Origin: Gemmatimonadota bacterium
Lineage (GTDB): Bacteria > Gemmatimonadota > Gemmatimonadetes > Palauibacterales > Palauibacteraceae
Length of the DNA stretch: 64,000 bases
Direction of reading: 5' to 3'
Assembly (NCBI GenBank): GCA_958295535.1
Contig: OY282356.1
Location: 2,404,378-2,468,377 of the forward strand
Both the position numbers and the translations under genes were made by a program. The notes beneath the pieces are model-generated. The model did not search any database, was not told the DNA's origin, and saw only the letters and a program-made list of their open reading frames with translations. Positions 5,171-60,004 of this stretch are shown piece by piece. The stretch's first letter is position 1, and each line of letters starts with the position of its first letter.

Positions 5171-7146
5171 CGCTAGCCGTGAGAGGCCATGTCGTGGCCG
5201 CGTGGTTCGGGGGCGCGGCCACCATTCTGGGAGCGGGGATCTTCGTGCCGGCCGACCGGCTCGAGGCCGTAGCTCAACGAGGCGCCGCGAATGGCGAGTG
5301 GCTGCACTGGGCCGGTGACGCCGGCTCCACCCGGTACGCGCCTCTGGACCAGATCGACGCCTCCAACGTGGCGGACCTGCAAATCGCGTGGCGGTGGCAG
5401 TCCCGCAACTTCGGCCCGACCCCCGAGAGCTACTACCGCGTGACGCCGCTCTACGCGAACGGCATGATCTACGCGACGGCCGGCTTTCGGCGGGCAGCGG
5501 TCGCGATCGACCCGGAGACGGGCGAGACGCTCTGGATGTACCGGCTCGACGAGGGAGAGCGCGGTGGCAACTCTCCGCGGGGCAACTCTGGCCGGGGGGT
5601 CGGCTACTGGAGCGACGGCGACGGCGAGAAGAGAGTCCTGCTGATCACGCCAGGCTACCACATGGTCTCCCTCGATGCCGACACTGGGGTCCCCGACCCC
5701 GCTTTCGGCGAGAACGGGATAGTCGACCTCAAGCTGGGGCTCGGGCGCGAGATCGACTTGGTGGAAGCGCGGATCGGGTCGAGCTCTCCTCCCGTCATCG
5801 TGGGAGATGTCGCCGTCGTCGGGGCGGCGCTGCCCGTCGGCGCGCGTCCACCCACGAAGGAGATGCCTCCCGGCCATGTGCGAGGATTCGATGTGCGGAC
5901 CGGCGAACTCCGGTGGATCTTCCACACTATCCCGCAGCCGGACGATTATGGACACGAGACGTGGGAGGACGACTCCTGGTCGTTCACGGGCAACGCCGCC
6001 GTCTGGGCGCCGTTCACGGCCGATCCCGAACTGGGATACGTATATCTGCCCGTAGAAGCGGGGACGGGCGACTACTACGGCGGGCACCGTCCGGGAGACA
6101 ACCTGTACTCTCAGAGTCTGGTGTGCCTGGACGCGAGGGATGGAAGCATAGTGTGGCACTACCAGACCGTGCGCCACGGGATCTGGGACTTCGATCCGCC
6201 CGCCGCGCCAGTCCTCATGGACATCACGGTGGACGGACGAGACATCCGCGCGGTGGCGCAGGTCACCAAGCAGACGTTCACGTTCACGTTCGACCGGATC
6301 ACGGGGGAGCCTGTCTGGCCGATCGAGGATCGTCCCGTGCCGGCGGGCGACGTGCCCGGCGAGTGGTACGCGCCGACGCAGCCGTTCCCGGTTCTGCCGG
6401 TGCCCTTCGATGTTCAGGGGGTGACGGAAGACGACCTGTTGGATCTGACGCCGGAACTGAAGGCCGAGGCGCTCGAGATCGCGCAGAAGCTGACTCTGGG
6501 TCCGATGTACACGCCTCCCACTCTGATCGAGGAGGGCGGCAACCAGGGTACGCTCGTGATGCCCGGCAGCCTTGGCGGCGCCAACTGGCCGGGAGCGGCG
6601 TACGACCCCGAGACGCAGCGGCTGTTCATCGGTTCCTCCACCCGGCCTTCCGTGATAGGCCTCGTCCATGATCCGGAGTCTTCCAACATGCGGTATATCC
6701 AAGGCCAGGCGCGGGGCGTAGGCGGACCCCGGGGATTGCCTTTGGTCAAGCCGCCGTGGGGGAGGATCACGGCGCTCGACATGAAGACCGGGCAAAAGGC
6801 GTGGACGATCGCGAATGACGACACGCCTTCCTTCATCGCGGAACATCCCGCGCTCGAGGGAGTCTCGGTTCCGCGCACGGGGCGGCAGACCCGGGCCGGC
6901 TTGCTCGCCACCCGAACTCTGCTCTTTGCCGGTACCGGCGGCGGGACGATGTCGGCCAGCCGGACGGGCCTGCTTCGGGCGCACGACAAGGCGACGGGCG
7001 AGATACTGGCGGCGATCGAGCTGCCGTCGCACCAGACCGGGGTGCCGATGACCTACATGCACGGGGGCAGGCAGTACATCGTCGTGGCCGTGGCCGGGCG
7101 GGGCGTGCCCGGGGAGCTGGTCGCGCTCCGGCTTCCCTCCCGCTGA
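5110..7146 (+). CDS. PQQ-dependent dehydrogenase (quinoprotein alcohol/glucose dehydrogenase family), secreted.
   Basis: About 679 aa from the internal ATG. Signal peptide. Repeated W-containing beta-propeller motifs (WRWQS, WHYQT, IWDFD). Length and motifs are typical of the methanol/ethanol PQQ-dehydrogenase family. The ORF-track start at 5047 overlaps the upstream gene. Confidence 0.75.
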   Translation: MRLQRLVGSLTAKLFSAWAASLAVRGHVVAAWFGGAATILGAGIFVPADRLEAVAQRGAANGEWLHWAGDAGSTRYAPLDQIDASNVADLQIAWRWQSRNFGPTPESYYRVTPLYANGMIYATAGFRRAAVAIDPETGETLWMYRLDEGERGGNSPRGNSGRGVGYWSDGDGEKRVLLITPGYHMVSLDADTGVPDPAFGENGIVDLKLGLGREIDLVEARIGSSSPPVIVGDVAVVGAALPVGARPPTKEMPPGHVRGFDVRTGELRWIFHTIPQPDDYGHETWEDDSWSFTGNAAVWAPFTADPELGYVYLPVEAGTGDYYGGHRPGDNLYSQSLVCLDARDGSIVWHYQTVRHGIWDFDPPAAPVLMDITVDGRDIRAVAQVTKQTFTFTFDRITGEPVWPIEDRPVPAGDVPGEWYAPTQPFPVLPVPFDVQGVTEDDLLDLTPELKAEALEIAQKLTLGPMYTPPTLIEEGGNQGTLVMPGSLGGANWPGAAYDPETQRLFIGSSTRPSVIGLVHDPESSNMRYIQGQARGVGGPRGLPLVKPPWGRITALDMKTGQKAWTIANDDTPSFIAEHPALEGVSVPRTGRQTRAGLLATRTLLFAGTGGGTMSASRTGLLRAHDKATGEILAAIELPSHQTGVPMTYMHGGRQYIVVAVAGRGVPGELVALRLPSR

Positions 7147-41900: not shown

Positions 41901-42403
41901 ACGACCTGATCTTCGTGACAGATGGAGTGTTCGACTTCCCCGACGCGAACAGGTCGCCCGTCAGCGGGCTGCTCTTCGAACAGCTCGTCTTGCGCGAGCG
42001 GTGCTTGAGCGGAAGCAGGCAACGGATTCTGCACCGCAACGCCTGCCGCACGCCTTGGTCTCACCAGCTCGACCTTCGGATCAGGCAGGAAGTCGCCGTT
42101 GGCGGCGCGCAGGTGGCTTTCATGATCGACGTGCTGAACTTCGTCAATCTGTTCAACAACTCTTGGGGACATGTCCAGACGGTGAACCCGGTGGTCCAGC
42201 TGCTCGCCGTGGAGAACCGGGTGGAGGATGACGCGGAGCCCAACAGCGTCCTCCCCGAGGCGGACGATCCCCTGGGGGCGCGCTACGCCGGAGCACTCCG
42301 AAAGAGCGATACGGGAGGAGTCGCGGCGGCCGTTCCGTACGTGCCTCGCATCGGGGCCTCCCAGTGGCAGGCGCAGCTCGGGATCGAGATACGTTTCCGC
42401 TAG
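38918..42403 (+). CDS. TonB-dependent outer-membrane receptor with an N-terminal carboxypeptidase-regulatory-like domain.
   Basis: Signal peptide. CarbopepD_reg-like segment (GRVADQDGQPVAGAQIDLRH(…)RFNFANLRPGGPYTLTV). Plug and long beta-barrel. C-terminal aromatic residue (IEIRFR). Start is uncertain. Confidence 0.75.
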   Translation: MSSAPPRRREPPPVPLAGRPPDRAPAYARLAPARASSGLEGIASGLVAVALVLAGAAFGLTTGAHPLSATQGITTAAASGRVADQDGQPVAGAQIDLRHANTGAAYATASDEEGRFNFANLRPGGPYTLTVARIGLRTVSREGLFLSIGQRLRLEIELSSAALPLPELAVRVDMDPEFDEARMGTAKLVDREALERLPTITRDFTDFAKLAPLVAVDEDGASVAGSNIRFNSIQIDGALNQDVFGLSPTGVAGGQSRGRLIPLSAIEQLQILIAPYDVRQSGFTGGVLNAVTRTGTNDFQASAFTFFRNEALAGDALIGGVAREPGDLDNLYAGFDVSGPIARDRVHFFVAGEVERRARTPDGFTVGVDEPLRTQLDADSVARLSGLLAGYGAEAGEAGLYTLNNNLANLFARIDARIDDDNSLMLRYNMALAGDDPAPNRLPGDAYELSSNGTRRNSRNHSVVGQWLATLGPSLSNDLTINAQILRDRERPNAAFPRIEVTLEGGPDGSGYRRRVRAGSNFFGQDSDLAQDVLQISNALTLSLGNNHLTVGAGLDRFAIRRDYLPGGLGSYTFNSVKDIAANAPSEYTVNLPLSDDAATTRFVVNQLSAFVQDEVSVGEALNLRLGVRMDLPLRPGPPPDNPAVRSSFGVGTNQLPGGNPLFSPRAGFNLRLGANKEVQIRGGAGLFTGRPPFAWLANAYQNSGLTSAFLTCRRRNIGVPDPEIVPAFDPKSPTPTSCADGAGASSALPVITVFDPDFRFPQDFKTSLAVDQRLPAGFVLSLEGVYTKAVNQIGLQDLNIGPVVPLGDRTPENGFTDGFGYGIRETFADAGDGSEFVDPPPGSGPGEREPIFFPRRVDEAFGQVIKVGNRTANFAYALSVRLRKRFGAWLSAEAGYAYNRSADVRSLVSLDAVANFGFTAIEGDPNNPTRQPSLFDRPHKLLATAAARLPKKLGGGELSLVYVGQSGRPYSYVYADDINGDAYPGLGQAASLANDLIFVTDGVFDFPDANRSPVSGLLFEQLVLRERCLSGSRQRILHRNACRTPWSHQLDLRIRQEVAVGGAQVAFMIDVLNFVNLFNNSWGHVQTVNPVVQLLAVENRVEDDAEPNSVLPEADDPLGARYAGALRKSDTGGVAAAVPYVPRIGASQWQAQLGIEIRFR

Positions 42404-42665
42404 CTTCTGCCGCAGTTTCGGCGGCGGCGACCGACAGGAGCGCGCGGCGCCCTGGACCGCGATGCGTTGCCGCCAGTGTCCGCGCCGGGTTCGCCGACGG
42501 CGACCGGCAGGAGCGGGCTTGGCTGCAGACCGCAATGCGCGGCCGGTAGCTTGTTGTCGCCAACCGGCATTACATTCGTTGTCCAAATTCCATCGTCTCG
42601 CGCCCAGAGTCGCCGCTCGGCGGCGCCCGGCGACAAAACCACACTTCTCGGAAAATCAGAGAGCC

Positions 42666-45260
42666 ATGCGATCACATCGTCCGACTATCGACACCAATCC
42701 CCACTCATTCTCGACGACTCCCCGCCGGCCGGGGAGCGTCCGGCCCGCAAGCTTCGCGGCGGCGCTGGCCGCATTCGCCCTGGCGGCGGGAGCGACCGCT
42801 TCCGTCGAGGCGCAAACGAACTCTCGAGGGCCGACGTTGACAGGAACGTCGTTGGCGGACCCGCTGCGGACGGCCCCGGCCGACGTTCATCCGGCGGCAT
42901 CCGCCAGTGCCGGCGGCATGATCGGATTCGGCACCGCCGCGGTCGTCGCGGGCGACCTGATATTCGTGTCGCGGCCCGGCGAATTCGCTCTGTTCCCCAT
43001 GCCCGGATCCGGACCGGGCAGCGTGCACGTGTTTCGGCGTGGAGCGAATAGCTGGACAGAGGTCGGCGTGGTAACCGCCCCCGGGGGCGAGTACGGAGAC
43101 GGCTTCGGACAGGCGCTGGCCGCGCAGCCCGGCTTGTTGGTGGTGGGCGCGCCAGGCGAAGACGAAGGGCGCGGAGCGATATACGTCTTTGTCGGCATGG
43201 GCAATTCGTGGGACTTCATGGAACGCATTCAACCTCCGGACGCCATGCCGGGCGACGCATTCGGATCGTCTGTGGCCGTTGGCGGCGATGGGACGTTCGG
43301 AGTCATCGGCGCCCCCGGCCGTGGAGCGAGCGGCTCCGTCTTTGGCTACTTCATGAGCAACTACGGCATGGAGAGAACCGAGATTACCGGATCCGACGCC
43401 CCGGCGGATGCCCGCTTTGGAGCCTCGCTGAGTCTGGAGGGGAACTTGGTTCTCATAGGGGCGCCCGGACCGTTCTCCCTGGGCTCTTTCGGCCAACCCG
43501 CCCCGCCTCAACCGGGGGTCGGCTATGTGTTCCAGCGTAGCGGAAACGACTTTGAGGAAGTCGCGCGGCTGACCCAGGCCGGGGGGATGGTCCTGGGCGC
43601 ATCGGTCGCGATGGCGGGTGGAGAAGCGCTCATCGGATCGCCATTTGGCGCACAGGGGATGGGCGCCGTCTACCGGTTCGCAGCCGATGATGCGGGCGAG
43701 TGGTCGCATACCGGGGAAGTCGGGGGGACGGGCGGCCGGACTCCGGGCACGCTCTTCGGCTACTCGGTGGGGCTGGCCGGCGAGCGGCTCGTGGTGGGCG
43801 CTCCAGGTGCGGGCCAGGGCATGGGCGGGGCCCACGTCTACGCCATGGGAGAAGATGGCGAGTGGAGCGAGGAGACTGCGCTGAACGCCGAGATAACCGG
43901 CCTCATCGGATTCATGGGCAACTCGGTCGCAGGCGGAGATGGCTTCGCCGTGGTGGGCGCCCCCGGCGCAGCCTTCTTCGAGGGAGTCGGGTACGTATTC
44001 GAGCGTGGCAGCGACGGCGTCTGGAGCGAGGCGCATCCGATCCACGAAGCGGTGTCGGGACCGCGAGCGGTGACCGGCGGCGAGCAGCGTTGTCCCGAAG
44101 AAGGAGAGGTCGCCGGCTTCCCCTGCTCGGAGATCGAGCTCCTGTCGTTTCTCCCCACGACCGAGGTGGGAGGCGCGCGCGGAATCATGGTCAGCGACAT
44201 CTGGGGGTGGGTGGATCCGCAGACGGGCCGCGAATACGCGATCCTGGGCCGGTTCGACGGAACTTCGTTCATCGATGTGACGGACGCCGAGAACCCGGTC
44301 TATCTCGGCAACCTTCCTCTCACGGAGGGGGCCTCGCCCAACCTGTGGCGTGACATGAAGGTCTACGACGATCACGTCTTCGTGGTGGCGGACAACGCCG
44401 GGCAGCACGGACTTCAGGTGTTCGATCTCGCAAAGTTGCGAGATGTCGCGTCGGCCCCGGTCGTGTTCGACGAGGACGCCCACTACTCGGAATTCGCCTC
44501 GGCGCACAACATCGTGATCAACGAGGAGTCCGGCTTCGCCTATGTCGTCGGGGCCAGTGGCGGAGGCGAGACGTGCGGAGGCGCCCTCCACATGGTCGAC
44601 ATTCGCGATCCCCGGAATCCGTCGTTTGCCGGATGCTACTCGGATCCCGCCACCGGACAAAACGGTCCGGGCTACACTCACGACGCTCAGTGCGTCATGT
44701 ACAGCGGTCCCGACGAGGATTACGCGGGCCGGGAAATCTGCTTCAACGCCAGCGAGACGGCGCTCGGAATCGGCGACGTCACCGACAAGGATAACCCTGT
44801 GCCGGTCGCCAGCGCCTCGTATCCCAACGTTGCGTACTCGCACCAGGGCTGGCTGACGGAGGACCAGCGATACTTCTATCTGAACGACGAGCTGGACGAA
44901 CTGCAGGGCGGGACCAGCGGGACCCGCACCCTCGTATGGGACGTGCAAGACCTCGATGATCCCATCCTGGCGCGGGAGTTCGTCCAGGACAACGCGGCCT
45001 CGGATCACAACTTGTACGTCCGGGGCAACTACATGTACCAGTCGAACTACGTCAGCGGGCTGCGAGTCTTCGATATCTCGGACCCGGAGAATCCGGCCCC
45101 GGCGGGGTTCTTCGACACGGTAGCAGGCAGCCCGGATGTCGCCGGTTTCGCGGGATCGTGGAGCAACTACCCGTTCTTCCCGTCCGGGAACATCGTCGTG
45201 TCCAGCATGAGGGAAGGACTGTTCGTGCTCAAGCTGCGTCGCGAGGAACTGGTTCCCTGA
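42666..45260 (+). CDS. Secreted beta-propeller protein with an N-terminal FG-GAP repeat domain fused to a C-terminal LVIVD-repeat/choice-of-anchor-B-like domain.
   Basis: Signal peptide from the internal ATG. At least six repeats of the form hhhGAPG(…)G(…)hYVF (FG-GAP). The C-terminal 400 aa carry paired Cys, W/Y-rich repeats and the ending GLFVLKLRR. Confidence 0.6.
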   Translation: MRSHRPTIDTNPHSFSTTPRRPGSVRPASFAAALAAFALAAGATASVEAQTNSRGPTLTGTSLADPLRTAPADVHPAASASAGGMIGFGTAAVVAGDLIFVSRPGEFALFPMPGSGPGSVHVFRRGANSWTEVGVVTAPGGEYGDGFGQALAAQPGLLVVGAPGEDEGRGAIYVFVGMGNSWDFMERIQPPDAMPGDAFGSSVAVGGDGTFGVIGAPGRGASGSVFGYFMSNYGMERTEITGSDAPADARFGASLSLEGNLVLIGAPGPFSLGSFGQPAPPQPGVGYVFQRSGNDFEEVARLTQAGGMVLGASVAMAGGEALIGSPFGAQGMGAVYRFAADDAGEWSHTGEVGGTGGRTPGTLFGYSVGLAGERLVVGAPGAGQGMGGAHVYAMGEDGEWSEETALNAEITGLIGFMGNSVAGGDGFAVVGAPGAAFFEGVGYVFERGSDGVWSEAHPIHEAVSGPRAVTGGEQRCPEEGEVAGFPCSEIELLSFLPTTEVGGARGIMVSDIWGWVDPQTGREYAILGRFDGTSFIDVTDAENPVYLGNLPLTEGASPNLWRDMKVYDDHVFVVADNAGQHGLQVFDLAKLRDVASAPVVFDEDAHYSEFASAHNIVINEESGFAYVVGASGGGETCGGALHMVDIRDPRNPSFAGCYSDPATGQNGPGYTHDAQCVMYSGPDEDYAGREICFNASETALGIGDVTDKDNPVPVASASYPNVAYSHQGWLTEDQRYFYLNDELDELQGGTSGTRTLVWDVQDLDDPILAREFVQDNAASDHNLYVRGNYMYQSNYVSGLRVFDISDPENPAPAGFFDTVAGSPDVAGFAGSWSNYPFFPSGNIVVSSMREGLFVLKLRREELVP

Positions 45261-49303: not shown

Positions 49304-50104
49304 GTGGCTGCGTATGTTCGCTATGCGCCTCGGAGCGGGGCCGAGGGCGATGCGGGGCGCTGGGGCGTCGTCGTGAACGAATCTGTCGTGGCCGACCTCG
49401 CGGCGCCTCCATTCGAAGAGGAAATCCGCACGGGCCGGTCGACGCCGCTTGACGAAGTAGAGCTGCTTGCCCCGGCGACGCCGTCCAAGGTGATCGCGGT
49501 CGGACTGAACTTCCGCAGCCATCTCGGCGGCCGGGACGAGCCGACCGAACCCGGACTCTTCGCCAAGCTTCCATCGGCAGTCATAGGTCCCGGCGAAGCG
49601 ATCGTCTTCCCCGCAGGCGCAGAAGCGGTGCACGCCGAGGGAGAGATCGTCGTCGTGATCGGCCGGACCACCCGTCGCGTGGGGATATCCGACGCGCCGA
49701 GCCGCATCTTCGGCGTGACGGCGGGCAACGATGTGAGCGAACGTCGTTGGCAGCGCGACGACTTGCAGTGGCTTCGCGCGAAGGCGAGCGATTCGTTCGG
49801 TCCGCTCGGGCCGAGGATCGTAACCGGCTCCGACTACACCGGACTAATGGTGGAAACGCGCATCAACGGGAAGGTCATCCAATCCGGAAACAACCGCGAT
49901 CTTATCTTTGGCATCCCCGAGATCGTCGCGTACGCGAGCCGCTACTTCACCCTGTACCCGGGGGATGTGATCTACACGGGGACCCCCGGCACGACGGCAG
50001 CTCTCTCTCCGGGCGACCTTGTCGAGGTCGAAGTCGAGGGCGTAGGCGTGCTGGCCAACCACGTGGAGGGGCCGAGCGGCCACGTCGGGCCGCATGATGC
50101 CTGA
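49304..50104 (+). CDS. Fumarylacetoacetate hydrolase (FAH)-family protein.
   Basis: 266 aa. FAH-fold motifs (KVIAVGLNFRSH, EGEIVVVIG, GDVIYTGTPGT). Confidence 0.8.
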   Translation: MAAYVRYAPRSGAEGDAGRWGVVVNESVVADLAAPPFEEEIRTGRSTPLDEVELLAPATPSKVIAVGLNFRSHLGGRDEPTEPGLFAKLPSAVIGPGEAIVFPAGAEAVHAEGEIVVVIGRTTRRVGISDAPSRIFGVTAGNDVSERRWQRDDLQWLRAKASDSFGPLGPRIVTGSDYTGLMVETRINGKVIQSGNNRDLIFGIPEIVAYASRYFTLYPGDVIYTGTPGTTAALSPGDLVEVEVEGVGVLANHVEGPSGHVGPHDA

Positions 50105-53100
50105 CATGCAGCGGTCGCCGAAGCTCTGGGCCGGGTCGTGCGCCGCCGCTGCGCTCGCGATCTCATTCATGGCCGCGGCCAGCCTTGGCGAGGCCGGCGC
50201 TGCCGCGAGCCTTCCAGTCGCGGCAGACGATCGAGCGCCGCCGCCGGCATCCGCTCCGGTCGCGCTGGAAGCGACGGCCCCTGCGCAGTCGTCCGGACGG
50301 CCGGACCGGCTCTCCCCAGGCGCTCGGACCACAGCCGGACAGCGAGCGGATACCGAGCAGTCGTCCGGACGACCGGAGCGACTGTCCCCAGCCCGCGCAG
50401 TTGACATGCCCTTGCAAGAGACCGCGGATTTGGTGTCGGTCTTCGAGCCAGGGCGGCTGCTGCTCGATACGAACGGCGACGGCGTGCCGGACTTGGTGAA
50501 CGCCGCGCTCGTCCTGGGAGACGATCCCACGCCTGCCGCGCTCGCGGCGGCGGCCGAGATCTCCGCGCGGCTGGGCTTCGAGACCATGGCGATGGACTTG
50601 CCGCTGTCCCGCGCGCCGGAGGGGCAACAGCTGGGGATCGCCGCCGGGCGCGCAGGGCTCGCGGCCGCCGGTCTGCAATCTCCGGGCATCGATCCTCTCT
50701 CGCTCGACTCGGGCGAGGGAGCGGTTGTCGTGAGGGAGGACGGGGAGCGCAGTTGGATCCTGGTGGTCGGGGGCGATGACGATGGGCTGCTGGCGGCCGC
50801 TCGCCTGTTCGCGGGAGTGCTGCCGCACACGCGCACGTTGCAGACGGCAAAGCTGGAGGAGGTGCGGGACGACATTGCCGCTGTGCTCGAGGAGGGCGGC
50901 ATCTCGGGTGCGCGTGTGCGGCTGACCCAGGCGCGGACGCGGAGCGGTCAGCCGGGCGTGGGGCGCGTCGTCGCGGAGATCGAGGTGGCCGTCGCGGAGC
51001 TGGACAGTGCCGCGACTCTCCTGCGGGCGGCGGCTGACGCGCCCCCCGCCGGCGATGCTAACCCAGCCGGTGCGGACCCTGTCGGCGATGCGGACGAAGC
51101 TGGCGCGGACGAGGCTGGCGCGGATGAGGAGCAGGCAGAAGCCGAAGAATCCGTCGGCGCCGAGCAGGACGAGGACGATGCCGCGGCCGACGAGAAGCGG
51201 CAGCCGTTCGCCTATCCCGGACTGGAGTCGGTCGAAGCGCGGCTGGCGGGCGGGGCCACCGTGCGCATCGCCGGGCGCGCCCCGCCGGATCGTCCCGGTC
51301 CGGTGCCGGGCCGGCCAGGCGGCGGCGCAAAGAGCGGCATGGACCTGTCGAATCTGTACACATCGGATGGACTGCTCGGAGGCGGCCTTATCCCGACCCG
51401 GGTGGATGCGATGCTCGCTCCCGGCGCGGAAGGCAGCGCCGGCCTGCCGGATCTAGCGGCCCGGCTCGGGCTCGAGTCCACCGGCCTCGTCATCCCCTTC
51501 GCCAAACCCGCCTCGTCGATCGACCGGCCCGGCAGCCAGCCGACGCTCGTACTCACGGGGACCGACAATCCGCTGACGCGACAGCTTGCCGACAGTTCCC
51601 GGATCGACTTGGAGGCGCTGGAGCCCGGCGAAGGACTCGTCCAGGTCGTTCCGAAGGCGTTCGGCGGCAAACCGGCGCTCGTGGTGGCTGGCGCGGACGC
51701 CGCCGGGGCGGAGCTCGCGCTCGGCCGTCTCGCTCGCACATTTCCACACCTGTCGGAGCGCGGAGCGGACCGCCCCACGATCGACGATGTCGAGCGCGAG
51801 CTCTGGGACGCTCTGTCCGGGCACTCGCCCGTGGGCCAAGCGGCGATCGGCCTCTACAAGCTCGGACGCATCGCCGACAAGCTCGCCGAGCGCCAGATCG
51901 TCCGCGCCAGCGTCCTGATGTCGGTCGAGAAAGCCGACCCGCAGCTGGAAGCGTACCTCCGCGACCGGGCCGCCGGCGCCCTCGGGCTACCGAACGTCAG
52001 CGTCACGATCGACGACCGCGATGTTCGGCGGGCGGCGACCATCTTCTCCGACACCCTGTCCCTGCCCTCCGAAGTCGAGAGCTTCCGCGAACTGATCCGC
52101 AGCCGCGTGCTCCCGGCAGCCGGCTCCGCCGGCCCCATCCGCGTCGAAGCCCGCCTCAGCGAACCCCCCGAGATTCGCCGCCAGCTGGAGCGAGAGACCC
52201 GCTCCGCCATCCTCCAGGCCGGCGCGTCGCCGGAGGATGTCGAAGTCCGCATCCTCTCGGCCTTCAAACAAGGATATTCCTGGCTGGAAGAGGTTGTCCT
52301 CCCCCAACTCCAAGGCCGCAGCGACATCGGAGAAGTCGTCATCCGCTTCCGGCGCAACGATCCGCCCCCGGAGTGGCCCCAGCAGGCGATACACACGCCG
52401 GTGAGGTGGCTGCACGAGATCTTCCCCATCGACGAGGCCATGGCGAAGCGACTCGGCCTGCCCCTGGAACGGATTCGCTTCGAGCAGACCGCCGCCGGCC
52501 CGGTCTACGGGGTAGCCGCCTTCGACACCGCGGGCGCCGAGATTCTCGCCGGAGACTTCGACCCCCGTTGGGTGCTCCGCCCCTACTTCGACCGCTTTCG
52601 GGACTATGAACAGGTACGGGTGACCACAGGCTGGCTCCGAGCCACAGCCGGGGACCGCATGCTGGCCGACGAGCGCATCGTAACGGACCCCGAAGCGTTC
52701 TGGGATCATTATCAGAGCAAGACGCTCCCCGCCATCTACGACTACGTCATGGAGCTCCACGACGGGCTTCCATCCGGAGGAAGCGCCGATGCGCCGTACT
52801 TCGGCGAGTTGAGAGTGCAGCTGGCGATGAGCGAACCCAACTACCGTCTCGGCATCGACAACGAGATTCACGCCCCGATGGACGCGCTTCACGAAGAAGT
52901 CTACTTCGGCACGATCGAATTCTTCGATCTCCTGGGACGGAACTCCAGAGGGCAGGGACTGACCTTCCCCGGACGGATAATCCCGGTGATGCTGCCCAGG
53001 GCCGACGGAGCGGCGGCCGAACTCCAGACCAGCTTCACCGGCTTCGCGACATCCCGGCCCGCCGTCGTCGTGGTCGCCGAGGATTCCGCCGGGGTCGCCG

Positions 53101-54689
53101 ACACTCTCCGGATGGACATCCCCAAGACCAGCCTGGAGCGGCCTTCCGCGAAGCTGGCTCTGCTCAGAGCCGCCGATCCTGAGCTGGCGCACTTGGCTCT
53201 GCGGGTTCGGGTCGACACCGATGCCGATGCGCGCGACAGCCTCCTGACGTACGCGCCGCCCCGCCAAGTGGACCGAAGCATGGTCTCCGCCGAGCAGGTG
53301 GCCACGACCATCCGGGAAATAGAAGAGCTGCGGGCCAACGGACTCTACGCTTCCGCGCTGGCCCACCCGGGCCTCGGCTCGCTCGAAGTGTGGGCCGAAT
53401 GGAGCCACGAGCAGGATCCCGACTCCCGCCGCACCGCAACCCTGGCAGCCAACGGCGCCCCCGACAGCCTCCCCGAGTGGCGCTCTCTCCTGCCGGAGGG
53501 GTGGAGCTACGACGGAGAGCGCCTCGTGCAGTGGGAGACTCCGATTCCTCCTTCGGAAGGACACGAGATCCTCGCGAAGATGGCCGCGACATTCGACGAA
53601 GCGACGATGTACAAAGTTGGCGACTCCTATCTCGGCAAGGAGATATGGGCGCTCGACCTCATGCCCCCGGTACGAGCCTCTCACTGGTCCCGGACAAAGG
53701 CGACCGCCTACAAGCCGACGATCGTCTACTCCGCGCGCCAGCATGCGAACGAAGTCTCGTCTACCAGCCATGTGCTCCGGCACGCCGAACTGCTTCTAAC
53801 GGACCCCGAGCAGCGGGACAAGCTCGACAAGGTCAACGTCATAGTCCACCCCTTCACGAACCCCGACGGCGCCCGGCTGGCATACGATCTCTTCCAGATC
53901 ACGCCGGACTTCATCCTCCACGCGGGATATCTGGGTTCCCTCGGCATGGACGCGACGTCAGGCTCCCGCGACGACCACCCGATCTACCCGGAAGCGCCCG
54001 TGCGCAACCGCATCTGGCGCAGCTGGCTTCCCGACATCTTCCTGAATCCGCACGGCTATCCTTCGCACCAGGTCGTCCAGCTCTTCAGCGAATACACCGG
54101 TCTGGTCAGGCGCGGCCGGGTGACCGAACGCAACTGGGGATTCAACAAGGGTTGGTTCATGCCCGGCTTCGGATACGTCGACAGTCCCGACCTGCCGCGG
54201 CACAAGGATGCGGCCTTCAAGATCCTCGACTACATCACGCGCGGGATCAACTCCAATCGCGATGTCTTCGAGATGAACCAGCGCAGCTACGAACGCTACC
54301 GCCGCTACGGGGTCGAGTACGACCCCGATGTCTTTCGACTGCCGATGACCGACAGCGTGCTCATTCAGCTGCCGTTGAAGGGTTCCAGCGGAGAGGGTGG
54401 CGGATACGACTCCCGAATCACTATCTGGAGCGGCACGACGGAGGCCCCGGACGAGACGGCGTACGGCCCGTGGATGGAGCTCGTCGCGAAGGCCGGTCTG
54501 TCGTGGGACCAGGCGCTGCTCGACTACCTTTACGATGGCGAACACGAGGTGAAGCGCTCGGGCTCATCCTTCTTCGGCGGGGTAACGCTGGGGATAAGCC
54601 GGCAGAGGCCGCCTGAAGCGGAGGAAGCCGACCCGGAAAATGGCGACCCGGAAGACGAAGAGACCAACATCAGCCAACGAGGAATCTGA
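50094..54689 (+). CDS. Very large secreted multidomain protein (1531 aa) with a C-terminal M14-family zinc carboxypeptidase-like domain.
   Basis: Signal peptide. Internal tandem repeat (QSSGRPDRLSPGA x2). Acidic D/E/A low-complexity stretch. C-terminal region has M14 hallmarks (SARQHANEVSS with H-x-x-E zinc ligands, HPFTNPDG, LNPHGYP third His). The stop overlaps the next start (TGATG). Confidence 0.65.
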   Translation: MMPDMQRSPKLWAGSCAAAALAISFMAAASLGEAGAAASLPVAADDRAPPPASAPVALEATAPAQSSGRPDRLSPGARTTAGQRADTEQSSGRPERLSPARAVDMPLQETADLVSVFEPGRLLLDTNGDGVPDLVNAALVLGDDPTPAALAAAAEISARLGFETMAMDLPLSRAPEGQQLGIAAGRAGLAAAGLQSPGIDPLSLDSGEGAVVVREDGERSWILVVGGDDDGLLAAARLFAGVLPHTRTLQTAKLEEVRDDIAAVLEEGGISGARVRLTQARTRSGQPGVGRVVAEIEVAVAELDSAATLLRAAADAPPAGDANPAGADPVGDADEAGADEAGADEEQAEAEESVGAEQDEDDAAADEKRQPFAYPGLESVEARLAGGATVRIAGRAPPDRPGPVPGRPGGGAKSGMDLSNLYTSDGLLGGGLIPTRVDAMLAPGAEGSAGLPDLAARLGLESTGLVIPFAKPASSIDRPGSQPTLVLTGTDNPLTRQLADSSRIDLEALEPGEGLVQVVPKAFGGKPALVVAGADAAGAELALGRLARTFPHLSERGADRPTIDDVERELWDALSGHSPVGQAAIGLYKLGRIADKLAERQIVRASVLMSVEKADPQLEAYLRDRAAGALGLPNVSVTIDDRDVRRAATIFSDTLSLPSEVESFRELIRSRVLPAAGSAGPIRVEARLSEPPEIRRQLERETRSAILQAGASPEDVEVRILSAFKQGYSWLEEVVLPQLQGRSDIGEVVIRFRRNDPPPEWPQQAIHTPVRWLHEIFPIDEAMAKRLGLPLERIRFEQTAAGPVYGVAAFDTAGAEILAGDFDPRWVLRPYFDRFRDYEQVRVTTGWLRATAGDRMLADERIVTDPEAFWDHYQSKTLPAIYDYVMELHDGLPSGGSADAPYFGELRVQLAMSEPNYRLGIDNEIHAPMDALHEEVYFGTIEFFDLLGRNSRGQGLTFPGRIIPVMLPRADGAAAELQTSFTGFATSRPAVVVVAEDSAGVADTLRMDIPKTSLERPSAKLALLRAADPELAHLALRVRVDTDADARDSLLTYAPPRQVDRSMVSAEQVATTIREIEELRANGLYASALAHPGLGSLEVWAEWSHEQDPDSRRTATLAANGAPDSLPEWRSLLPEGWSYDGERLVQWETPIPPSEGHEILAKMAATFDEATMYKVGDSYLGKEIWALDLMPPVRASHWSRTKATAYKPTIVYSARQHANEVSSTSHVLRHAELLLTDPEQRDKLDKVNVIVHPFTNPDGARLAYDLFQITPDFILHAGYLGSLGMDATSGSRDDHPIYPEAPVRNRIWRSWLPDIFLNPHGYPSHQVVQLFSEYTGLVRRGRVTERNWGFNKGWFMPGFGYVDSPDLPRHKDAAFKILDYITRGINSNRDVFEMNQRSYERYRRYGVEYDPDVFRLPMTDSVLIQLPLKGSSGEGGGYDSRITIWSGTTEAPDETAYGPWMELVAKAGLSWDQALLDYLYDGEHEVKRSGSSFFGGVTLGISRQRPPEAEEADPENGDPEDEETNISQRGI

Positions 54690-55453
54690 TGCAGATACCA
54701 TTCAAGGCACCACCGCCCGATCCAAGCGCGACCGGCATCGAACGAGTCGTTCGGCGTCCGATCCGGCGACTGCTGGCCAGGGCGTGCGGCTTCGCGATCA
54801 TGCTCGGCGGATTCGCGCCCGTAGGCGGACCAGCGCTATTCGGGGGGCCGGAGGCCGGCGGACCATCTCCGCTCGGGGGGCCAGGGGCCGGCGCTCCAGC
54901 CTCGAGCGTCGCCACCCTTCTTGCCTATGTGGAGTTCGGCGTCGTGACGTTGTACGCGGGTGGGGCGTTACACGCGCAGGAGGAAGAGGAGGGCGAGCAG
55001 GAGCAGGGAGAGGAAGAAGAAGCCGTGGACGAGACGGCCGAAGCGGATTCGACCGTCACCACGACCCAGGGAGTGTTCAGCGAGGAGCAGGCGGCTCGCG
55101 GCGAGGAAATCTTCTGGACGATCTGCTCGGAGTGTCACTTCGAGGAAGATTTCGGGGGACCGTTCATTCAGTCGTGGGCCAGCGTCACCGTCAAGGATCT
55201 CCTTGACGAAATCATCGCCACCATGCCCGAGGACAACCCCGGGGGAATGCCCCTGCAAGAGTACATCGACGTCATCACCTACCTGTTCAAGATCAACGGG
55301 ATGCCCGCGGGCGAAGACGAACTGACCGAGGAAGAGCTCGACGCGGTCAAGATCGACTACGACCCGGACGCCGGTGGCGATCCTCCGCCGGAAGGCGACC
55401 CCGAATCGGAAGACGGCTCGGAGCCAGCGGACAGCCCCGGTACCGGGAGGTGA
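54689..55453 (+). CDS. Mono-haem c-type cytochrome with acidic low-complexity flanks.
   Basis: Single CSECH (CxxCH) motif with a downstream Met candidate (MPEDNPGGMPLQEYID). N-terminal hydrophobic segment. E/D-rich regions. ATG overlaps the upstream stop. Confidence 0.55.
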   Translation: MQIPFKAPPPDPSATGIERVVRRPIRRLLARACGFAIMLGGFAPVGGPALFGGPEAGGPSPLGGPGAGAPASSVATLLAYVEFGVVTLYAGGALHAQEEEEGEQEQGEEEEAVDETAEADSTVTTTQGVFSEEQAARGEEIFWTICSECHFEEDFGGPFIQSWASVTVKDLLDEIIATMPEDNPGGMPLQEYIDVITYLFKINGMPAGEDELTEEELDAVKIDYDPDAGGDPPPEGDPESEDGSEPADSPGTGR

Positions 55454-55552: not shown

Positions 55553-57319
55553 TCAGGCCTTGGCCGCCCGCAGCCGGTTGATCGCGGCCGCGCCTTCCAG
55601 CAGCAGCCATATCTCTAGGACGAAGATCGCGCCCCCCAGCACCAACAGATGCCAGTCATTGTTCCCGGAGTACCCCGCGAGGTTCACGATCATCGCCCAT
55701 GTGGTCATGACGAGAAGGAACGACATCGGGATAAGCGTTATCCAGTACGGGCGCTTCTTCCGCATCAGGTAGAGCGACACGATCAGCAGAGTCAGGCCGG
55801 CCAGCAGCTGGTTCGTGGTTCCGAACAGAGGCCATAGCGTCATGCCGCCGGCGCCACGGTCGACCGACAGCGCCAGCAAAGCGCAGCTGACGACGGCAAC
55901 GGCTGTGGCAACCCACCGGTTCTGCAGCGGCTTCACGTTGTACTCCGCGCCCAGCTCGCCGATGATGTAGCGCTGAAGCCGGACCGCGGTATCCAGCGTC
56001 GTCGCGGCGAAGCAGATCACGACGACCGAAGCGAAGATCTCGGCGACCCCCGCCGGGATCCCGAGCCCGCCCGCGATGGCTCCGACACCCTTGACGAAGG
56101 CCACCGTGGCGCCGGTGGTCGCCGCGGAGAAGCTGCCGTAGTGTTCCTGCCAGAGGGCCAATCCCGCCACCGGACCCGCATCCTGAGAAAGATAGATCGC
56201 GAATCCGGCCGTGCACGCGATGATCGAAGTGACCGCCAGAGTTCCCTCGCCCACCGCCCCTCCGTACCCCACGTAGCGGGCGTCCGGCTCCCTGGACAAT
56301 TGCTTCGATGACGTGCCGGATCCGACGAGACCGTGAAAGCCGCTAATCGCCCCGCAGGCGATCGTTATGAACAGAAGCGGCAGCCACGACGGCGTGTCCG
56401 ACGGAAGATTCGGGTTGACCGCCGGCGCCACGACCTCGGGGTTCGCGACCAGAACGCCCACGCCGATGATCGCCAGCGCCACGAACAGCTGGTGGCCATT
56501 CACGTAGTCCCTGGGCTGGAGGAGCAGCCAGACGGGAAGCACCGATGCGATGAACGTGTACGCGAAGAGAACGACTATCCAGCCGACCCTCCGCCCGTCC
56601 GCCTCCGCCGCGGCTCCTGCCGCCCCCGCGTCTCCGCCCGCAGCCGCCAGTTGGGCTTCGGTGGGGCCGAACCCGATCAGGTCGGGCATCGTGAACGGCA
56701 TGTCCTGGCCGAACCAGATGAGGACATAGAGCGTAGCCAGCGCCCCCAGGGATGGAAGCAGTATCCCCGCCCCCGTTCGGTATATGAGAAAGCCCACCAC
56801 CAGCGCCACGACGAGCGACCCCCAGACGGGCACGACCGCGCCGGGGTTGGCCATGAACAGATTGGAGATGATCACGGCGAACACCGCGTTCACCATCAGA
56901 AGGAGGAAGAAGATGATGAGAAGGAAGAGCACGCGGGCGCGCTTGCCCAGGATCGACTCGGTCAGAGTGCCGATCGACCGCCCTTTGTGGCGGGTGGAGA
57001 TCCACAGGGCGGCGAAGTCGTGCACGGCGCCGGCGAAGACAGTACCGAAGACAACCCACAGGAAGGCCGGCAGCCACCCCCAGATTACGGCGATCGCCGG
57101 TCCGACGATCGGCGCGGCGCCTGCCACCGATGTGAAGTGGTGCCCGAAGAGGACATGCTTGTTGGTGGGCACGTAGTCCACTCCGTCGCGGAACTCGTGC
57201 GCGGGCGTCACGAAGTCCGGGTCCAGCTTGAACACCTTGCCGGCGATGAAGCGGGAGTAGATCAGCACTCCCGTGACGAAAGCAAGCAACCCCACTAGCA
57301 ACAGGACTATCGCGCTCAT
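55553..57319 (-). CDS. cstA: Carbon starvation protein A (CstA-family peptide/pyruvate transporter).
   Basis: Start at MSAIVLLL. Highly conserved CstA N-terminal block (HHFTSVAGAAPIVGP(…)GWLPAFLWVVFGTVFAGAVHDF). Multi-TM. About 589 aa. Confidence 0.85.
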   Translation of the reverse strand: MSAIVLLLVGLLAFVTGVLIYSRFIAGKVFKLDPDFVTPAHEFRDGVDYVPTNKHVLFGHHFTSVAGAAPIVGPAIAVIWGWLPAFLWVVFGTVFAGAVHDFAALWISTRHKGRSIGTLTESILGKRARVLFLLIIFFLLLMVNAVFAVIISNLFMANPGAVVPVWGSLVVALVVGFLIYRTGAGILLPSLGALATLYVLIWFGQDMPFTMPDLIGFGPTEAQLAAAGGDAGAAGAAAEADGRRVGWIVVLFAYTFIASVLPVWLLLQPRDYVNGHQLFVALAIIGVGVLVANPEVVAPAVNPNLPSDTPSWLPLLFITIACGAISGFHGLVGSGTSSKQLSREPDARYVGYGGAVGEGTLAVTSIIACTAGFAIYLSQDAGPVAGLALWQEHYGSFSAATTGATVAFVKGVGAIAGGLGIPAGVAEIFASVVVICFAATTLDTAVRLQRYIIGELGAEYNVKPLQNRWVATAVAVVSCALLALSVDRGAGGMTLWPLFGTTNQLLAGLTLLIVSLYLMRKKRPYWITLIPMSFLLVMTTWAMIVNLAGYSGNNDWHLLVLGGAIFVLEIWLLLEGAAAINRLRAAKA

Positions 57320-58539
57320 CGCATGACCTCGGTCGAAGTTTCGTGAACCGGAATGCGTCTCAGGGCGTCGGCCCCTACCGGATCTGTCTCTTGGAGCGTG
57401 ACGCGCAGTAGTGGCCAATCTCCCAGCGTCTCGGAGATTCTCGCAAGGTAGCCGGCTTCGCGCTCCCGCCGCGCCGCCATGAAAGGATCGTCCGGCGAAG
57501 CCGAAGCGGCCTCTGGTTCTCCGTCATCGCCAGTGTCTCCTGCGGGAGCGTCGCCCGCAGCCGAGGCGGGGACGCCGACCGCAGCCGGGGCGGGGGTGTC
57601 GATCGCAGCCGGATCAGCAGTAGTGCCCGATGCCGGAGCAGGGGTATCGCCCGCAGCCGGATCAGCAGTAGCGCCCGATGCCGGAAGCACCTTGTTGACG
57701 ACCACCGCGCCGATCGGAATGCCGTTCCGGGCGAGCGCCTCGACGGCCTTCTCCGTCTCCCAGATCGGGAGCCGCTCGGGGGTCACGACGAAGACGAAAG
57801 CCGTCTGCTCCGAGTCGGCGAGCACCCGGCGGGCGCGGTCGAACCGGCTGCGGCGCTCTTCCAACGCCTGAAGCAGCGGGTCGTCGCGCGGAATCTCGTT
57901 CGTGTCGGTGCCGGCCACGTTGTTCCACATCCGGGATATGGCGCCGACCTTCTCCCTCCGCTTGATGAGTCCGCCGATCCAGGCGGACATCGACTCGGGC
58001 AGGGCGAGCAGGCGCAGAGTCTGGCCAGTAGGCGCAGTGTCGAAGACGATCCGGTCGTACTCCTCGGCCTCGTCTTCCAGTATGCGCGTGAACCGGTCGA
58101 AGAGAGCCGCTTCGGCCGCGCCCGGCGACACACGGGCGATGTCGATCTGCCGGTAGACCTCCCCCAGCAGGCGCGGCGGCGCGGCGGAGGCGACACGCGA
58201 CTTGACGGCTTCGATATAGGCGTCCGCCTCGCGCTCCGGATCGATCTCCATCGCCGAGCAGCCCGGGGCCACCGGGCGCGGCCGGCCGTCGAGCCTCGTC
58301 TGGAGAATGTCCGACGTAGAGTGGGCCGGATCGGTAGACACGAGCAGCGTCTTGTAGCCCTCTCTCCCCTCGCCCCTCCGGCCCGCCAGTCGAAGAGCGG
58401 CCGCCGACGCGATCGTCGTCTTCCCTACGCCGCCCTTGCCGCCGAAGAAGAGGATGCGGCGGTCGGGGAAGGGAAATCTGTTCAGCAACAGCGAAATCCC
58501 CCCTCTGGCGGGCGCTCCATCCCCACACGCCGATGCCAT
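57316..58539 (-). CDS. ArsA/GET3-family P-loop ATPase (anion-transporting ATPase-like), coupled to cstA by an ATGA overlap.
   Basis: Deviant Walker A ILFFGGKGGVGKTT. DTAPTG A-motif. C-terminal insertion with a 48-bp tandem repeat encoding ASGATADPAAGDTPAP x2. Start taken at MASAC. Confidence 0.7.
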   Translation of the reverse strand: MASACGDGAPARGGISLLLNRFPFPDRRILFFGGKGGVGKTTIASAAALRLAGRRGEGREGYKTLLVSTDPAHSTSDILQTRLDGRPRPVAPGCSAMEIDPEREADAYIEAVKSRVASAAPPRLLGEVYRQIDIARVSPGAAEAALFDRFTRILEDEAEEYDRIVFDTAPTGQTLRLLALPESMSAWIGGLIKRREKVGAISRMWNNVAGTDTNEIPRDDPLLQALEERRSRFDRARRVLADSEQTAFVFVVTPERLPIWETEKAVEALARNGIPIGAVVVNKVLPASGATADPAAGDTPAPASGTTADPAAIDTPAPAAVGVPASAAGDAPAGDTGDDGEPEAASASPDDPFMAARREREAGYLARISETLGDWPLLRVTLQETDPVGADALRRIPVHETSTEVMR

Positions 58540-58790
58540 TCGTGAAACTCCTCGATGAGCGACGGATAGAGCTCGAGCATGTAGAAGTGCACCGGATTCG
58601 GCACGCCCAGCAGATCCGAGAAGCCGGCCAGCATGAACATGTCGTGCTGCCGCAGGTACTCCCGGTGAATCGCGGAGCGGTACGGGGCGATGTAGAGACC
58701 CTCGTAGATGTCTCTCGCCTCGCTGAGCCATCTGCGCCAGCGGGGTGTCCGGGTCGGGGCGCCCCCATCGTCTGCGGACGCGTCGGGAAG
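58482..58790 (-). CDS. Hypothetical small protein upstream of the ArsA-like gene. Start is undefined, possibly non-ATG.
   Basis: Conserved-looking aromatic-rich segment (YEGLYIAPYRSAIHREYLRQHDMFMLAGFSDLLGVPNPVHFYMLELYPSLIEEFHEWH). The 5' part of the ORF-track frame overlaps the upstream gene. Confidence 0.3.
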   Translation of the reverse strand, partial: LPDASADDGGAPTRTPRWRRWLSEARDIYEGLYIAPYRSAIHREYLRQHDMFMLAGFSDLLGVPNPVHFYMLELYPSLIEEFHEWHRRVGMERPPEGGFRCC

Positions 58791-58801
58791 CGTTCGGCGG
58801 G

Positions 58802-60004
58802 TCAACCTCCCGACTGCCGCCGCTCCCACGCCCTCACGCGAGGAATAGCTTCGTCGAACACCCGCTCGTAGTTGAGGCGTTCCACCTGCGCCCGGGTCTG
58901 GGCATCGAGCCGCTCCCACAGCGGAGCGTACACTTCATGATTGGCCACGTACGACTCCCAGCTCGCCGGGGCCACGGCGTCGGTTCCAAAGAGGAAGCGC
59001 GTCGGATGCCTCGCTATCAGGGCGGCCCACTCATCGCTGCTCGCGGGGTCGCCGACGATGTACTTCGCGACTTCATCCCACGAGATATCCATAAAGACGT
59101 GCGAGAGGCGCGGATCGGACAGCATGCGATCGAGCAGGTCGACATGGCCTTCGCCGGGCGCCACGAACCGGCCTAGTCCCGTATGCGCCCAGATGATGCT
59201 GGTCCCGGGATGAGTAGCGAACAGTCGCATCAGATCGTCGAAGTGATCGGGCGGCTCGGCCGGACGCACATTGTCGATGTCGCAGTGGAGGATGACGACC
59301 AAGCCGATCTCCTCGGCCGCCTCGAGGATGCGCCCCAGCGAAGGATTGCGGAGACTCGGCGCGTGCCCGGAGATCTTGGAGGACACGAACTCCTTGTGAA
59401 TGCTGAACTCGCCGATGCCCGCGAAAACTCCGGGGAACGTCAGCAACACGCGCTTGATGTGGCTGGCGGCGTACATGTCCGCCGGGTTGAATCCCGTGAT
59501 CATCGGATCGATGCGCCGCTGGCCGGCGTCGGACAGCGCCAGGTACTCCTGGGCTATTGCCGCGTCCACGAAAGAGTAGTAGTAGAGCGGAGCGTTCGAG
59601 CGCAGATAGTAGTCCGGGGCCCGGTCCCCCGAAACGAAGTAGTCCCACTTCTGTTGCAGGGGAATGCCGAACATGGCCACCCGGCCCACCCGGTCATCCA
59701 CCATGTCCAGGTACTCCTGCGCGGTAATGCCCTCCTGAATGTAGTTCAGCAGGTGAAAGTGGGAGTCGTTGAAGAGCGGCTCGGCGGCAGGCCGCGACTC
59801 CGGGACGACTAGCGCCGGCTCGGACGCGGAGCCGCTGGCAGCCAACGATGCGGCCGACGATAAAGAAGGGGAGGAAACGGAAGACGAGGAGGCGGCAGGC
59901 GACGACAAAGCAATGGAAGAAGCGGAAGGGGAGGAAACGGAAACAGACGCTGGGTGCGCAGACCGCCCCGCGCCACAACCAGCCAACGCCAGCACGGCGA
60001 TCAT
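58802..60004 (-). CDS. Amidohydrolase-2 (TIM-barrel metal-dependent hydrolase, PF04909-like) lipoprotein with a Ser/Ala-rich linker.
   Basis: Lipoprotein signal MIAVLALAGCGAG. About 45 aa of S/A/P low complexity. Amidohydro_2 motifs (FNDSHFHLLNY, ILHCDID, WAHTG, FGTD). Confidence 0.65.
   Translation of the reverse strand: MIAVLALAGCGAGRSAHPASVSVSSPSASSIALSSPAASSSSVSSPSLSSAASLAASGSASEPALVVPESRPAAEPLFNDSHFHLLNYIQEGITAQEYLDMVDDRVGRVAMFGIPLQQKWDYFVSGDRAPDYYLRSNAPLYYYSFVDAAIAQEYLALSDAGQRRIDPMITGFNPADMYAASHIKRVLLTFPGVFAGIGEFSIHKEFVSSKISGHAPSLRNPSLGRILEAAEEIGLVVILHCDIDNVRPAEPPDHFDDLMRLFATHPGTSIIWAHTGLGRFVAPGEGHVDLLDRMLSDPRLSHVFMDISWDEVAKYIVGDPASSDEWAALIARHPTRFLFGTDAVAPASWESYVANHEVYAPLWERLDAQTRAQVERLNYERVFDEAIPRVRAWERRQSGG

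Follow-up and report, generated by a model that had tools for sequence, protein, structure and literature searches.

The window analysed here is a stretch of 64,000 nucleotides (nt) from the forward strand of a Palauibacter-like Gemmatimonadota bacterium (GenBank assembly GCA_958295535.1, contig OY282356.1, positions 2,404,378 to 2,468,377), and the work concerned two adjacent genes on its plus strand. The first is an open reading frame (ORF) of 1531 amino acids (aa) at 50094-54689 (+), called the giant below, which was assigned as an M14-like zinc hydrolase from the ORF list, its translation and its homologues, and which includes an insert with a 24-aa period. The second, at 54689-55453 (+), is an ORF of 254 aa. 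Pfam PF13442 identified it as a class I c-type cytochrome with one haem, in which the N-terminus is extended and both the linker and the C-terminal tail are acidic. The initial annotation had described the two as a secreted M14-domain protein translationally coupled to an acidic cytochrome and had raised the idea that they form an extracellular or periplasmic complex. The overlap of the two ORFs was borne out by their coordinates and by the sequence at the junction of giant stop and cytochrome start, which reads TGATG. As described in the following sections, the giant is a new member of a large M14-like metallohydrolase family without a described function, and the picture of a peptidase-redox machine was not upheld.

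Locus comparisons throughout were made on the best 80 of 241 species genomes that were found to carry a relative of the giant, with one genome scanned per species. Both ORFs lie far beyond chance and, judged by their conservation, are real genes, because the giant was 55-80% identical across the 80 related loci and the cytochrome domain was 54-78% identical in 17 of them. The two genes are co-directional and are probably co-transcribed in this lineage; a scan for promoter and terminator consensus sequences gave nothing meaningful. Upstream of the giant lies the gene for an FAH-family hydrolase (49304-50104, +; Pfam PF01557), a cytoplasmic enzyme, and the junction sequence places its stop codon (50102-50104) so that it abuts or overlaps the giant start. 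Three alternative start codons are available to the giant (ATG 50094, 50097 and 50106), the FAH gene ending 1 nt before the last of these, and the signal peptide is retained with each. On the other side, the gene for a CstA transporter (55553-57418, -; Pfam PF02554, E 3.6e-144) is convergent with the cytochrome gene and lies 100 nt past it; the other nearest transporter gene is an MFS gene upstream.

Domain organisation and active site of the giant

The signal peptide claimed for the giant was supported by the form of its N-terminus. The region concerned (50094-50204, +; MMPDMQRSPKLWAGSCAAAALAISFMAAASLGEAGA), predicted from hydropathy, has a charged n-region (MQRSPK) followed by a hydrophobic stretch with Kyte-Doolittle values of 1.3-1.9 over residues 11-30, and in all 20 aligned close relatives a signal-like segment stands right before the conserved core of the family, which opens with DL..LF..G.LV.DTNGD.VPD. 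The long form of the ORF was preferred because every one of these relatives carries such an N-terminus directly before the core. A public gene call for a 99% identical protein (P0001), which starts at M105, was rejected, as it drops the signal peptide that is present in all relatives. The start of that call, at position 10001 of locus L001, corresponds to position 50406 of the window and omits both the signal peptide and the repeat insert described next; it is probably a start-codon mis-call.

A repeat search identified an insert (50285-50391, +) with two 35-nt copies at a spacing of 72 nt, which encode QSSGRP[DE]RLSP with a 24-aa period. The internal repeat had originally been described as built from 25-aa units; the repeat itself is real, but its unit is 24 aa and there are only two copies. 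The insert that bears it, roughly 70 aa after the signal peptide, has no counterpart in the 20 aligned relatives and is unique to this genome. In total, three short-repeat expansions (35 nt x 2; 15 nt x 2.7 at 51090-51129; 33 nt x 2.3 at 54824-54900) have added low-complexity segments to the two proteins predicted to be exported, and all three are restricted to this genome and a twin that is 99% identical to it, the relatives being without them.

Two alpha/beta domains follow, with an acidic linker between them. Domain 1 (50415-50828, +; about residues 110-245) is preceded by the motif DTNGDGVPD and was recognised by a weak Pfam match to BcsB over residues 135-240 and by Foldseek matches to PDB entry 9fsa, glycoside hydrolase (GH) families GH115 and GH67, and BcsB; it was classed as a domain of the surface-layer (S-layer) anchor, BcsB or GH115 N-terminal type. 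The linker (51060-51203, +; about residues 323-370), which contains a 15-nt tandem repeat at 51090-51129 detected by TRF, is the Asp/Glu/Ala low-complexity segment that had been reported before. Its length and sequence vary among relatives, and it was modelled with a predicted local distance difference test score (pLDDT) below 50. Domain 2 (51339-51749, +; about residues 415-552) carries a match to Pfam S_layer_C (PF05124) over residues 468-546 that is marginal, at 24.4 bits against a cut-off of 23.9, and that recurs in 21 of 21 close relatives. This domain resembles 9fsa, the S-layer anchoring domain of Methanococcus voltae, both by sequence (E 0.0077 with the single sequence and 7e-4 with a profile) and by fold (Foldseek E 1.4e-4, template-modelling (TM) score 0.67 on the target). 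By hhalign the two domains are homologues (probability 95.5%, E 1.5e-8), domain 1 being the paralogue of domain 2. The likeness to 9fsa has its limits: unlike that domain, the giant is bacterial and carries an enzyme domain, some members of its family are predicted not to be exported, and the AlphaFold model of residues 100-700 (mean pLDDT 75) matched, in addition to the M. voltae domain, the N-terminal domains of GH115, GH67 and GH84 enzymes and BcsB.

About 1000 aa of the giant had been regarded as unassigned. This was too much, since the two homologous alpha/beta domains can be assigned and leave about 570 aa, a conserved middle region (51771-53483, +; about residues 560-1130) for which the model gives a confident fold. 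Its motifs include SAFKQGYSWL, RWLHEIFPIDE, VTTGW, TDPEAFWDHYQ and SEPNYRLGIDNEIH..ALHEE; the means of 10-residue blocks of pLDDT were mostly 80-95 over residues 560-750 and 50-93 beyond, and the region is kept in relatives down to 23-30% identity. No match to it was found in Pfam, NCBIfam or the PDB. The NCBIfam scan gave no match anywhere on the giant, Pfam matches among 21 close and 18 distant members of the family were limited to M14, S_layer_C and weak BcsB, and PDB sequence searches with the whole giant, the M14 region alone and a family profile returned no M14 structure, only 9fsa and spurious TAL-effector repeats. It could be that this conserved core of 570 aa acts as a second module in catalysis or substrate binding, of a kind not yet described. 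The giant has an isoelectric point (pI) of 4.8, its mature form (more than 1400 aa) contains no cysteine in any of the 21 sequences compared, a single stray residue excepted, and neither a haem motif nor a recognisable redox domain was found in it by Pfam scan or in its sequence.

The C-terminal part of the giant is an M14-like zinc hydrolase domain (53568-54623, +). It was matched by PF00246 (E 1.8e-13; 51.2 bits against a cut-off of 21.6, over profile positions 4-106 of 286 only) and, in its N-terminal half, by carboxypeptidases A and B (CPA and CPB) in Foldseek (E 3e-4); the Pfam match was obtained for all 21 close and all 18 distant relatives scanned. QHANE and NPDG, the motifs from which the module had first been proposed, are both present and invariant, as are NPHGYPSH and TTEAPDE, and with a Pfam match above cut-off this part of the initial annotation stood. 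In a broader alignment of 18 family members reaching down to 23% identity, in which the last 460 aa were scored, the invariant positions were S1199, K1202, H1217, E1220, S1222, T1224, N1256, D1258, G1259, H1276, G1284, P1313, D1314, H1320, G1321, F1331, Y1334, E1450, D1453 and R1503. The zinc ligands H1217 (codon 53742-53744, +), E1220 (53751-53753, +) and H1320 (54051-54053, +) were invariant both here and among the 20 close relatives.

In a profile-to-sequence alignment with bovine CPA by hhalign, which serves as a lead more than as a test, H69, E72 and H196 of CPA fell on H1217, E1220 and H1320, N144 on T1288 and R145 on S1289, and the segment of the giant at R127, ITPDFILHAGY, contained no Arg. 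The positions of Arg127, Asn144 and Arg145 are not conserved in the broad family. E1450 (54441-54443, +), in the motif TTEAPDE, is invariant and follows a predicted strand, and from this invariance and its position it is likely to be the counterpart of Glu270; no residue-level alignment reaches it, model confidence there is low, and the distance from the third zinc ligand to this Glu is about 130 residues in the giant compared with about 74 in CPA. With the M14 metallocarboxypeptidases (CPA/CPB/CPT, PF00246) the giant has in common the HxxE...H arrangement (QHANE, NPHG), NPDG, a conserved Glu after a beta-strand (TTEAPDE) and the fold of the N-terminal half of the domain. Unlike them, it matches the first third of the Pfam profile only, is without equivalents of Arg127, Asn144 and Arg145, and has its domain preceded by 1100 aa of conserved N-terminal sequence, found in no characterised M14 enzyme.

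As to the catalytic residues, then, the zinc-binding His, Glu and His and the likely catalytic Glu are kept, and Arg127, Asn144 and Arg145 are absent. Because of this combination the domain is predicted to be active but not to grip a free C-terminal carboxylate in the classical manner; its conservation suggests that it is probably an active metallohydrolase that is not of the classical CPA/CPB type. A non-catalytic M14-like scaffold, which had been entertained as an option, is disfavoured by the invariance of the zinc ligands and the presumed catalytic Glu down to 23% identity.

Family distribution and neighbouring uptake systems

The closest proteins, P0001 and P0121 (99-100% identical), are encoded on metagenomic contigs of about 3 Mb, and the next closest, at 74-80% identity, come from Candidatus Palauibacter, which are Gemmatimonadota associated with sponges and the sea; close homologues of the giant, at 62-99% identity, numbered 209. 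With residues 332-1531 as query, an exhaustive search gave 1132 clusters (50% identity) at a threshold of E<=1e-3, of which 439 reached E<=1e-30, and many clusters of the family are full-length at 1000-1450 aa. The relatives extend to a full-length Clostridium protein in the 23-30% identity class, WP_346901619.1, which is annotated only as 'M14 family metallopeptidase'. Literature searches on the domain combination and on M14 enzymes in Gemmatimonadota found no description of the family.

A few members of the set are irregular in their filing or gene structure. The giants of L027 and L037 (filed under Gammaproteobacteria) and of L054 (filed under Acidimicrobiia) are 67-80% identical to those of Gemmatimonadota and most likely reflect binning errors; L054 also shares the same cytochrome and synteny. 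At L082 (3515-10026) the giant is split into ORFs of 463 and 967 aa, through a frameshift or a real split, and P0002 (2579 aa) fuses M14 and Cache domains, probably as a gene-call fusion.

The neighbours that the giant shares most widely in Gemmatimonadota are genes for CstA and an ArsA-like ATPase, and in 24 of the 80 loci no more than 6 kb separate the giant from CstA. In the Palauibacter clade, which is the top group of giant identity (74-80% in one comparison, 78-81% in another), and in L046 these two genes are convergent to the giant. In 10 other loci they stand upstream in tandem and on the same strand, in the order ArsA, CstA, giant; at L016, ArsA (2935-3975) and CstA (4037-5809) precede the giant. 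A block of DUF7990, ArsA-like ATPase and CstA genes is conserved across Gemmatimonadota (window 55553-59100, -; L016 2935-5809; L083 8554-11750).

Distant relatives of the giant also adjoin uptake machinery, of other kinds. A SusC/SusD pair stands directly upstream of the relatives in L088 and L090 (P0199 and P0195), one SusC/SusD locus having FecR/STN signalling genes and then DUF2891 and a hydantoinase/oxoprolinase-type gene; an outer-membrane beta-barrel of the CarboxypepD_reg/OMP (TonB) type is directly upstream in L089 (P0181), and in Clostridium a DUF969/DUF979 membrane pair is directly downstream. Because the giant adjoins uptake machinery across phyla, we infer a peptide-type substrate that is prepared for import. 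The closest parallel among such systems is with the enzymes of Bacteroidota SusC/SusD loci, to which the giant is tied through the position of its distant relatives P0199 and P0195 directly after SusC/SusD and of P0181 after the TonB-type barrel, and like which it may work, as an exported degradative enzyme feeding a transporter. Unlike those enzymes, the giant of the window is not adjoined by a SusC/SusD pair.

Elsewhere in the window, at 42228-45260 (+) and upstream to about 38900, a 1010-aa FG-GAP-repeat ORF was found with a CarboxypepD_reg/OMP beta-barrel (TonB-type) gene before it, seen in L001. MFS, S51 peptidase and CstA genes lie nearby, and the region looks rich in uptake and peptide-handling functions.

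Candidate roles of the giant

The reading that we favour, and consider reasonably probable, is that the locus encodes an exported, probably active zinc hydrolase for peptide-type nutrients, followed closely by the gene for an electron carrier of the periplasm that is unrelated to it. The giant would be exported by the Sec system as a cysteine-free, multi-domain zinc hydrolase, in which alpha/beta domain 1, the disordered acidic linker, alpha/beta domain 2 and the core of about 570 aa are followed by the C-terminal M14-like domain. It would cut a peptide or a peptide-containing polymer outside the cytoplasm, and the cleavage products could then be imported. The cytochrome would serve separately as a periplasmic electron carrier, and the two proteins would form no physical complex.

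Several points weigh against this reading. The uptake-system context is varied, and outside Gemmatimonadota it was sampled in six loci only. Several distant relatives, with the Clostridium protein among them, start at the conserved core and lack a signal peptide, so that an extracytoplasmic nutrient-processing role cannot cover the whole family. No solved M14 structure was detectable by sequence from the giant. In the model, the C-terminal half of the M14-like domain reached a pLDDT of 20-50, and the role given to E1450 rests on motif position and invariance; the missing Arg127, Asn144 and Arg145 could mean that peptidase activity is altered or lost. Finally, the adjacency of giant and cytochrome is perfectly conserved within the Palauibacter clade, and stop/start overlaps in two independent lineages (the window with L001, and L046) are compatible with some selection for co-expression.

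Part of the evidence would also suit a cell-wall enzyme that trims the stem peptides of peptidoglycan, like the M14-type gamma-D-Glu-DAP (DAP, diaminopimelic acid) peptidases and MpaA, and so acts in remodelling or recycling, not in nutrient capture. The zinc site of the giant is M14-like without the classical specificity residues of CPA, the fold of its N-terminal domains resembles a cell-wall anchoring domain, and exported and cytoplasmic members exist side by side in its family, as they likewise do among murein-recycling enzymes. However, no genes for murein synthesis or recycling are conserved beside the giant, the PDB sequence search gave no similarity to characterised M14C enzymes or MpaA, and neighbours such as SusC/SusD, the TonB-type barrel and CstA suggest the uptake of an external substrate. 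We regard a role in the cell wall as rather unlikely.

It is also unlikely that the giant is mainly a structural protein of the surface layer or envelope, with the M14-like domain as a binding or accessory module. Such a protein could well be large and acidic, with a signal peptide and no cysteine in its mature form, as the giant is (pI 4.8), and the S_layer_C match and the fold match to the M. voltae cell-wall anchoring domain would be accounted for. However, the S_layer_C score is barely above the cut-off, the alpha/beta fold is shared with BcsB and with the N-terminal domains of glycoside hydrolases, and several relatives, the Clostridium protein among them, have no signal peptide. S-layer proteins usually diverge faster than the giant family does: the giant is 55-80% identical across an order-level group, and its zinc and catalytic residues are invariant down to 23% identity. 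For the giant itself, an exported hydrolase of peptide-type nutrients is thus the role that we prefer.

The cytochrome and its linkage to the giant

The cytochrome had been described as acidic and mono-haem, and both terms hold. A CSECH motif occupies residues 146-150 (55124-55138), with Met179 at 55223-55225, and C146, C149 and H150 together with T178-M179-P180-E181 were invariant in 16 cytochrome sequences; the PF13442 match scored 33.6 bits against a cut-off of 27, and weak profile matches were obtained to solved cytochromes of the expected class (7q21_C and 8wb4_V). The mature protein of 157 aa has 47 Asp and Glu residues to 5 Lys and Arg, giving a pI of about 4.05. Every member of the family has a hydrophobic leader ending ..AQ and then an acidic linker. 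The window protein has hydrophobic segments at residues 26-45 and 66-90 that end in ALHAQ, as the homologue leaders do, its N-terminus being atypically long, and its start, MQIP, corresponds to MHIS of the homologues. About 65 extra N-terminal residues, which stem in part from a Gly/Pro-rich insert made by a 33-nt tandem repeat (54824-54900, +; 2.3 copies, TRF), and a 30-aa acidic C-terminal tail are found in none of the homologues.

In its single CxxCH, the distal Met in TMPE, a domain of about 90 aa and the hydrophobic leader, the protein resembles small class I c-type cytochromes (Cytochrome_CBB3; the cytochrome c subunit of the bc1 complex, c550 of photosystem II and the Rhodothermus type). 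Unlike these, the window copy is very acidic (pI about 4) and has the two terminal extensions, and its family, of 55 clusters, is confined to Palauibacter-like genomes. It is itself probably an ordinary exported class I c-type cytochrome, as its motifs and leader suggest. Since the Palauibacterales are described (PMC10469786) as facultatively aerobic, with complex IV and respiration of N-oxides, its default role is probably that of a periplasmic electron carrier in aerobic or N-oxide respiratory chains.

The genomic linkage bears on the proposal that the two genes form a lineage-specific functional pair, in which the Palauibacter cytochrome would have been recruited as a partner of the giant, for instance for redox-dependent regulation or as an electron carrier docked to it, and would be co-translated with it. 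A cytochrome homologue lies directly downstream of the giant, on the same strand, in all 17 loci that carry both genes, which are those of the Palauibacter clade and L046. In the other 63 loci no homologue was found within 6 kb on either side of the giant, and none was found at the loci of distant relatives (Clostridium and the SusC/SusD loci). The reverse case also exists, as a diverged cytochrome (P0173, in L083) stands beside CstA, ArsA and DUF7990 with no giant in the 8 kb on each side; each gene can therefore occur without the other. Moreover, the flanking genes are conserved to the same extent as the pair: the Palauibacter clade has a syntenic block SNase-FKBP-FAH-giant-cytochrome-(DinB)-CstA-ArsA, which is whole in 16 loci, and L046 keeps FKBP-giant-cytochrome-CstA-ArsA without FAH and DinB, which is still most of the block. 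Because the whole block is syntenic, the adjacency of the two genes is no more informative than shared ancestry.

The stop/start overlap, which is TGATG in the window and L001 and arose independently as ATGA in L046, speaks for a functional pair. So do two further points: both products are predicted to be exported, and in this genome each has acquired acidic extensions of low complexity. In the other Palauibacter loci, however, the cytochrome (151-165 aa) has its ORF start 4-84 nt after the giant stop. The overlap in the window arises because the giant has a longer acidic C-terminal tail here, which reaches as far as the conserved 'M[HQ]I[SP]' with which the cytochrome begins, and since the cytoplasmic FAH hydrolase is packed just as tightly upstream, close spacing is the rule at this locus and not a sign of partnership. 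The giant also offers little for a redox partner to act upon, since its cysteine-free mature form leaves no thiol chemistry, and it has neither a haem motif nor a recognisable redox domain. We therefore hold a functional pair to be improbable. The pairing is most likely a lineage-specific gene order of neighbours and not a conserved functional module, and the peptidase-cytochrome complex or system suggested at the outset was not supported, given its restriction to one clade and L046 (17 of 80 loci), conservation that is synteny-wide, and a cytochrome that stands alone in L083.

The gene that follows the giant varies by clade and may be the cytochrome, DUF4399 (26 of the 80 loci), an extracytoplasmic function (ECF) sigma factor or a metallo-beta-lactamase-fold protein; in some cases nothing conserved follows. 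The idea that a small secreted partner always follows the giant was rejected, as the downstream gene differs by clade. The DUF4399 gene, which those 26 loci (L011, L012, L014, L031, L033 and others) have downstream of the giant, encodes a secreted protein of about 149 aa with an HHH motif and takes the slot of the Palauibacter cytochrome, about 100 nt after the giant stop; in 21 of the 26, no more than 270 nt lie between it and the end of the giant match. At L082 the cytochrome is a 274-aa tandem two-domain form, as in P0122-P0124, and is followed by two extra ORFs of about 195 aa, and in some Palauibacter loci a large double-Cache-type ORF comes after the cytochrome (L042 10857-13406; L052 10567-13344).

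Very improbable, finally, is the combined scenario in which the cytochrome was captured behind the giant in Palauibacter, became translationally coupled in two sublineages and acts as a dedicated partner through redox gating or electrostatic docking, the 570-aa core of the giant being, separately, a second module; if true, this would be the first pair of a zinc hydrolase and a c-type cytochrome.

We therefore prefer to see in the locus an exported hydrolase of peptide-type nutrients that happens to be followed by an unrelated electron carrier. The original reason for interest in it, a peptidase-cytochrome system, is mostly gone. In its place stands a strongly conserved M14-like family of more than 1000 clusters from several phyla, for which no characterised member was found; were its substrate identified, an annotation gap would be filled for Bacteroidota and gut Clostridia as well as for marine and sponge-associated Gemmatimonadota.

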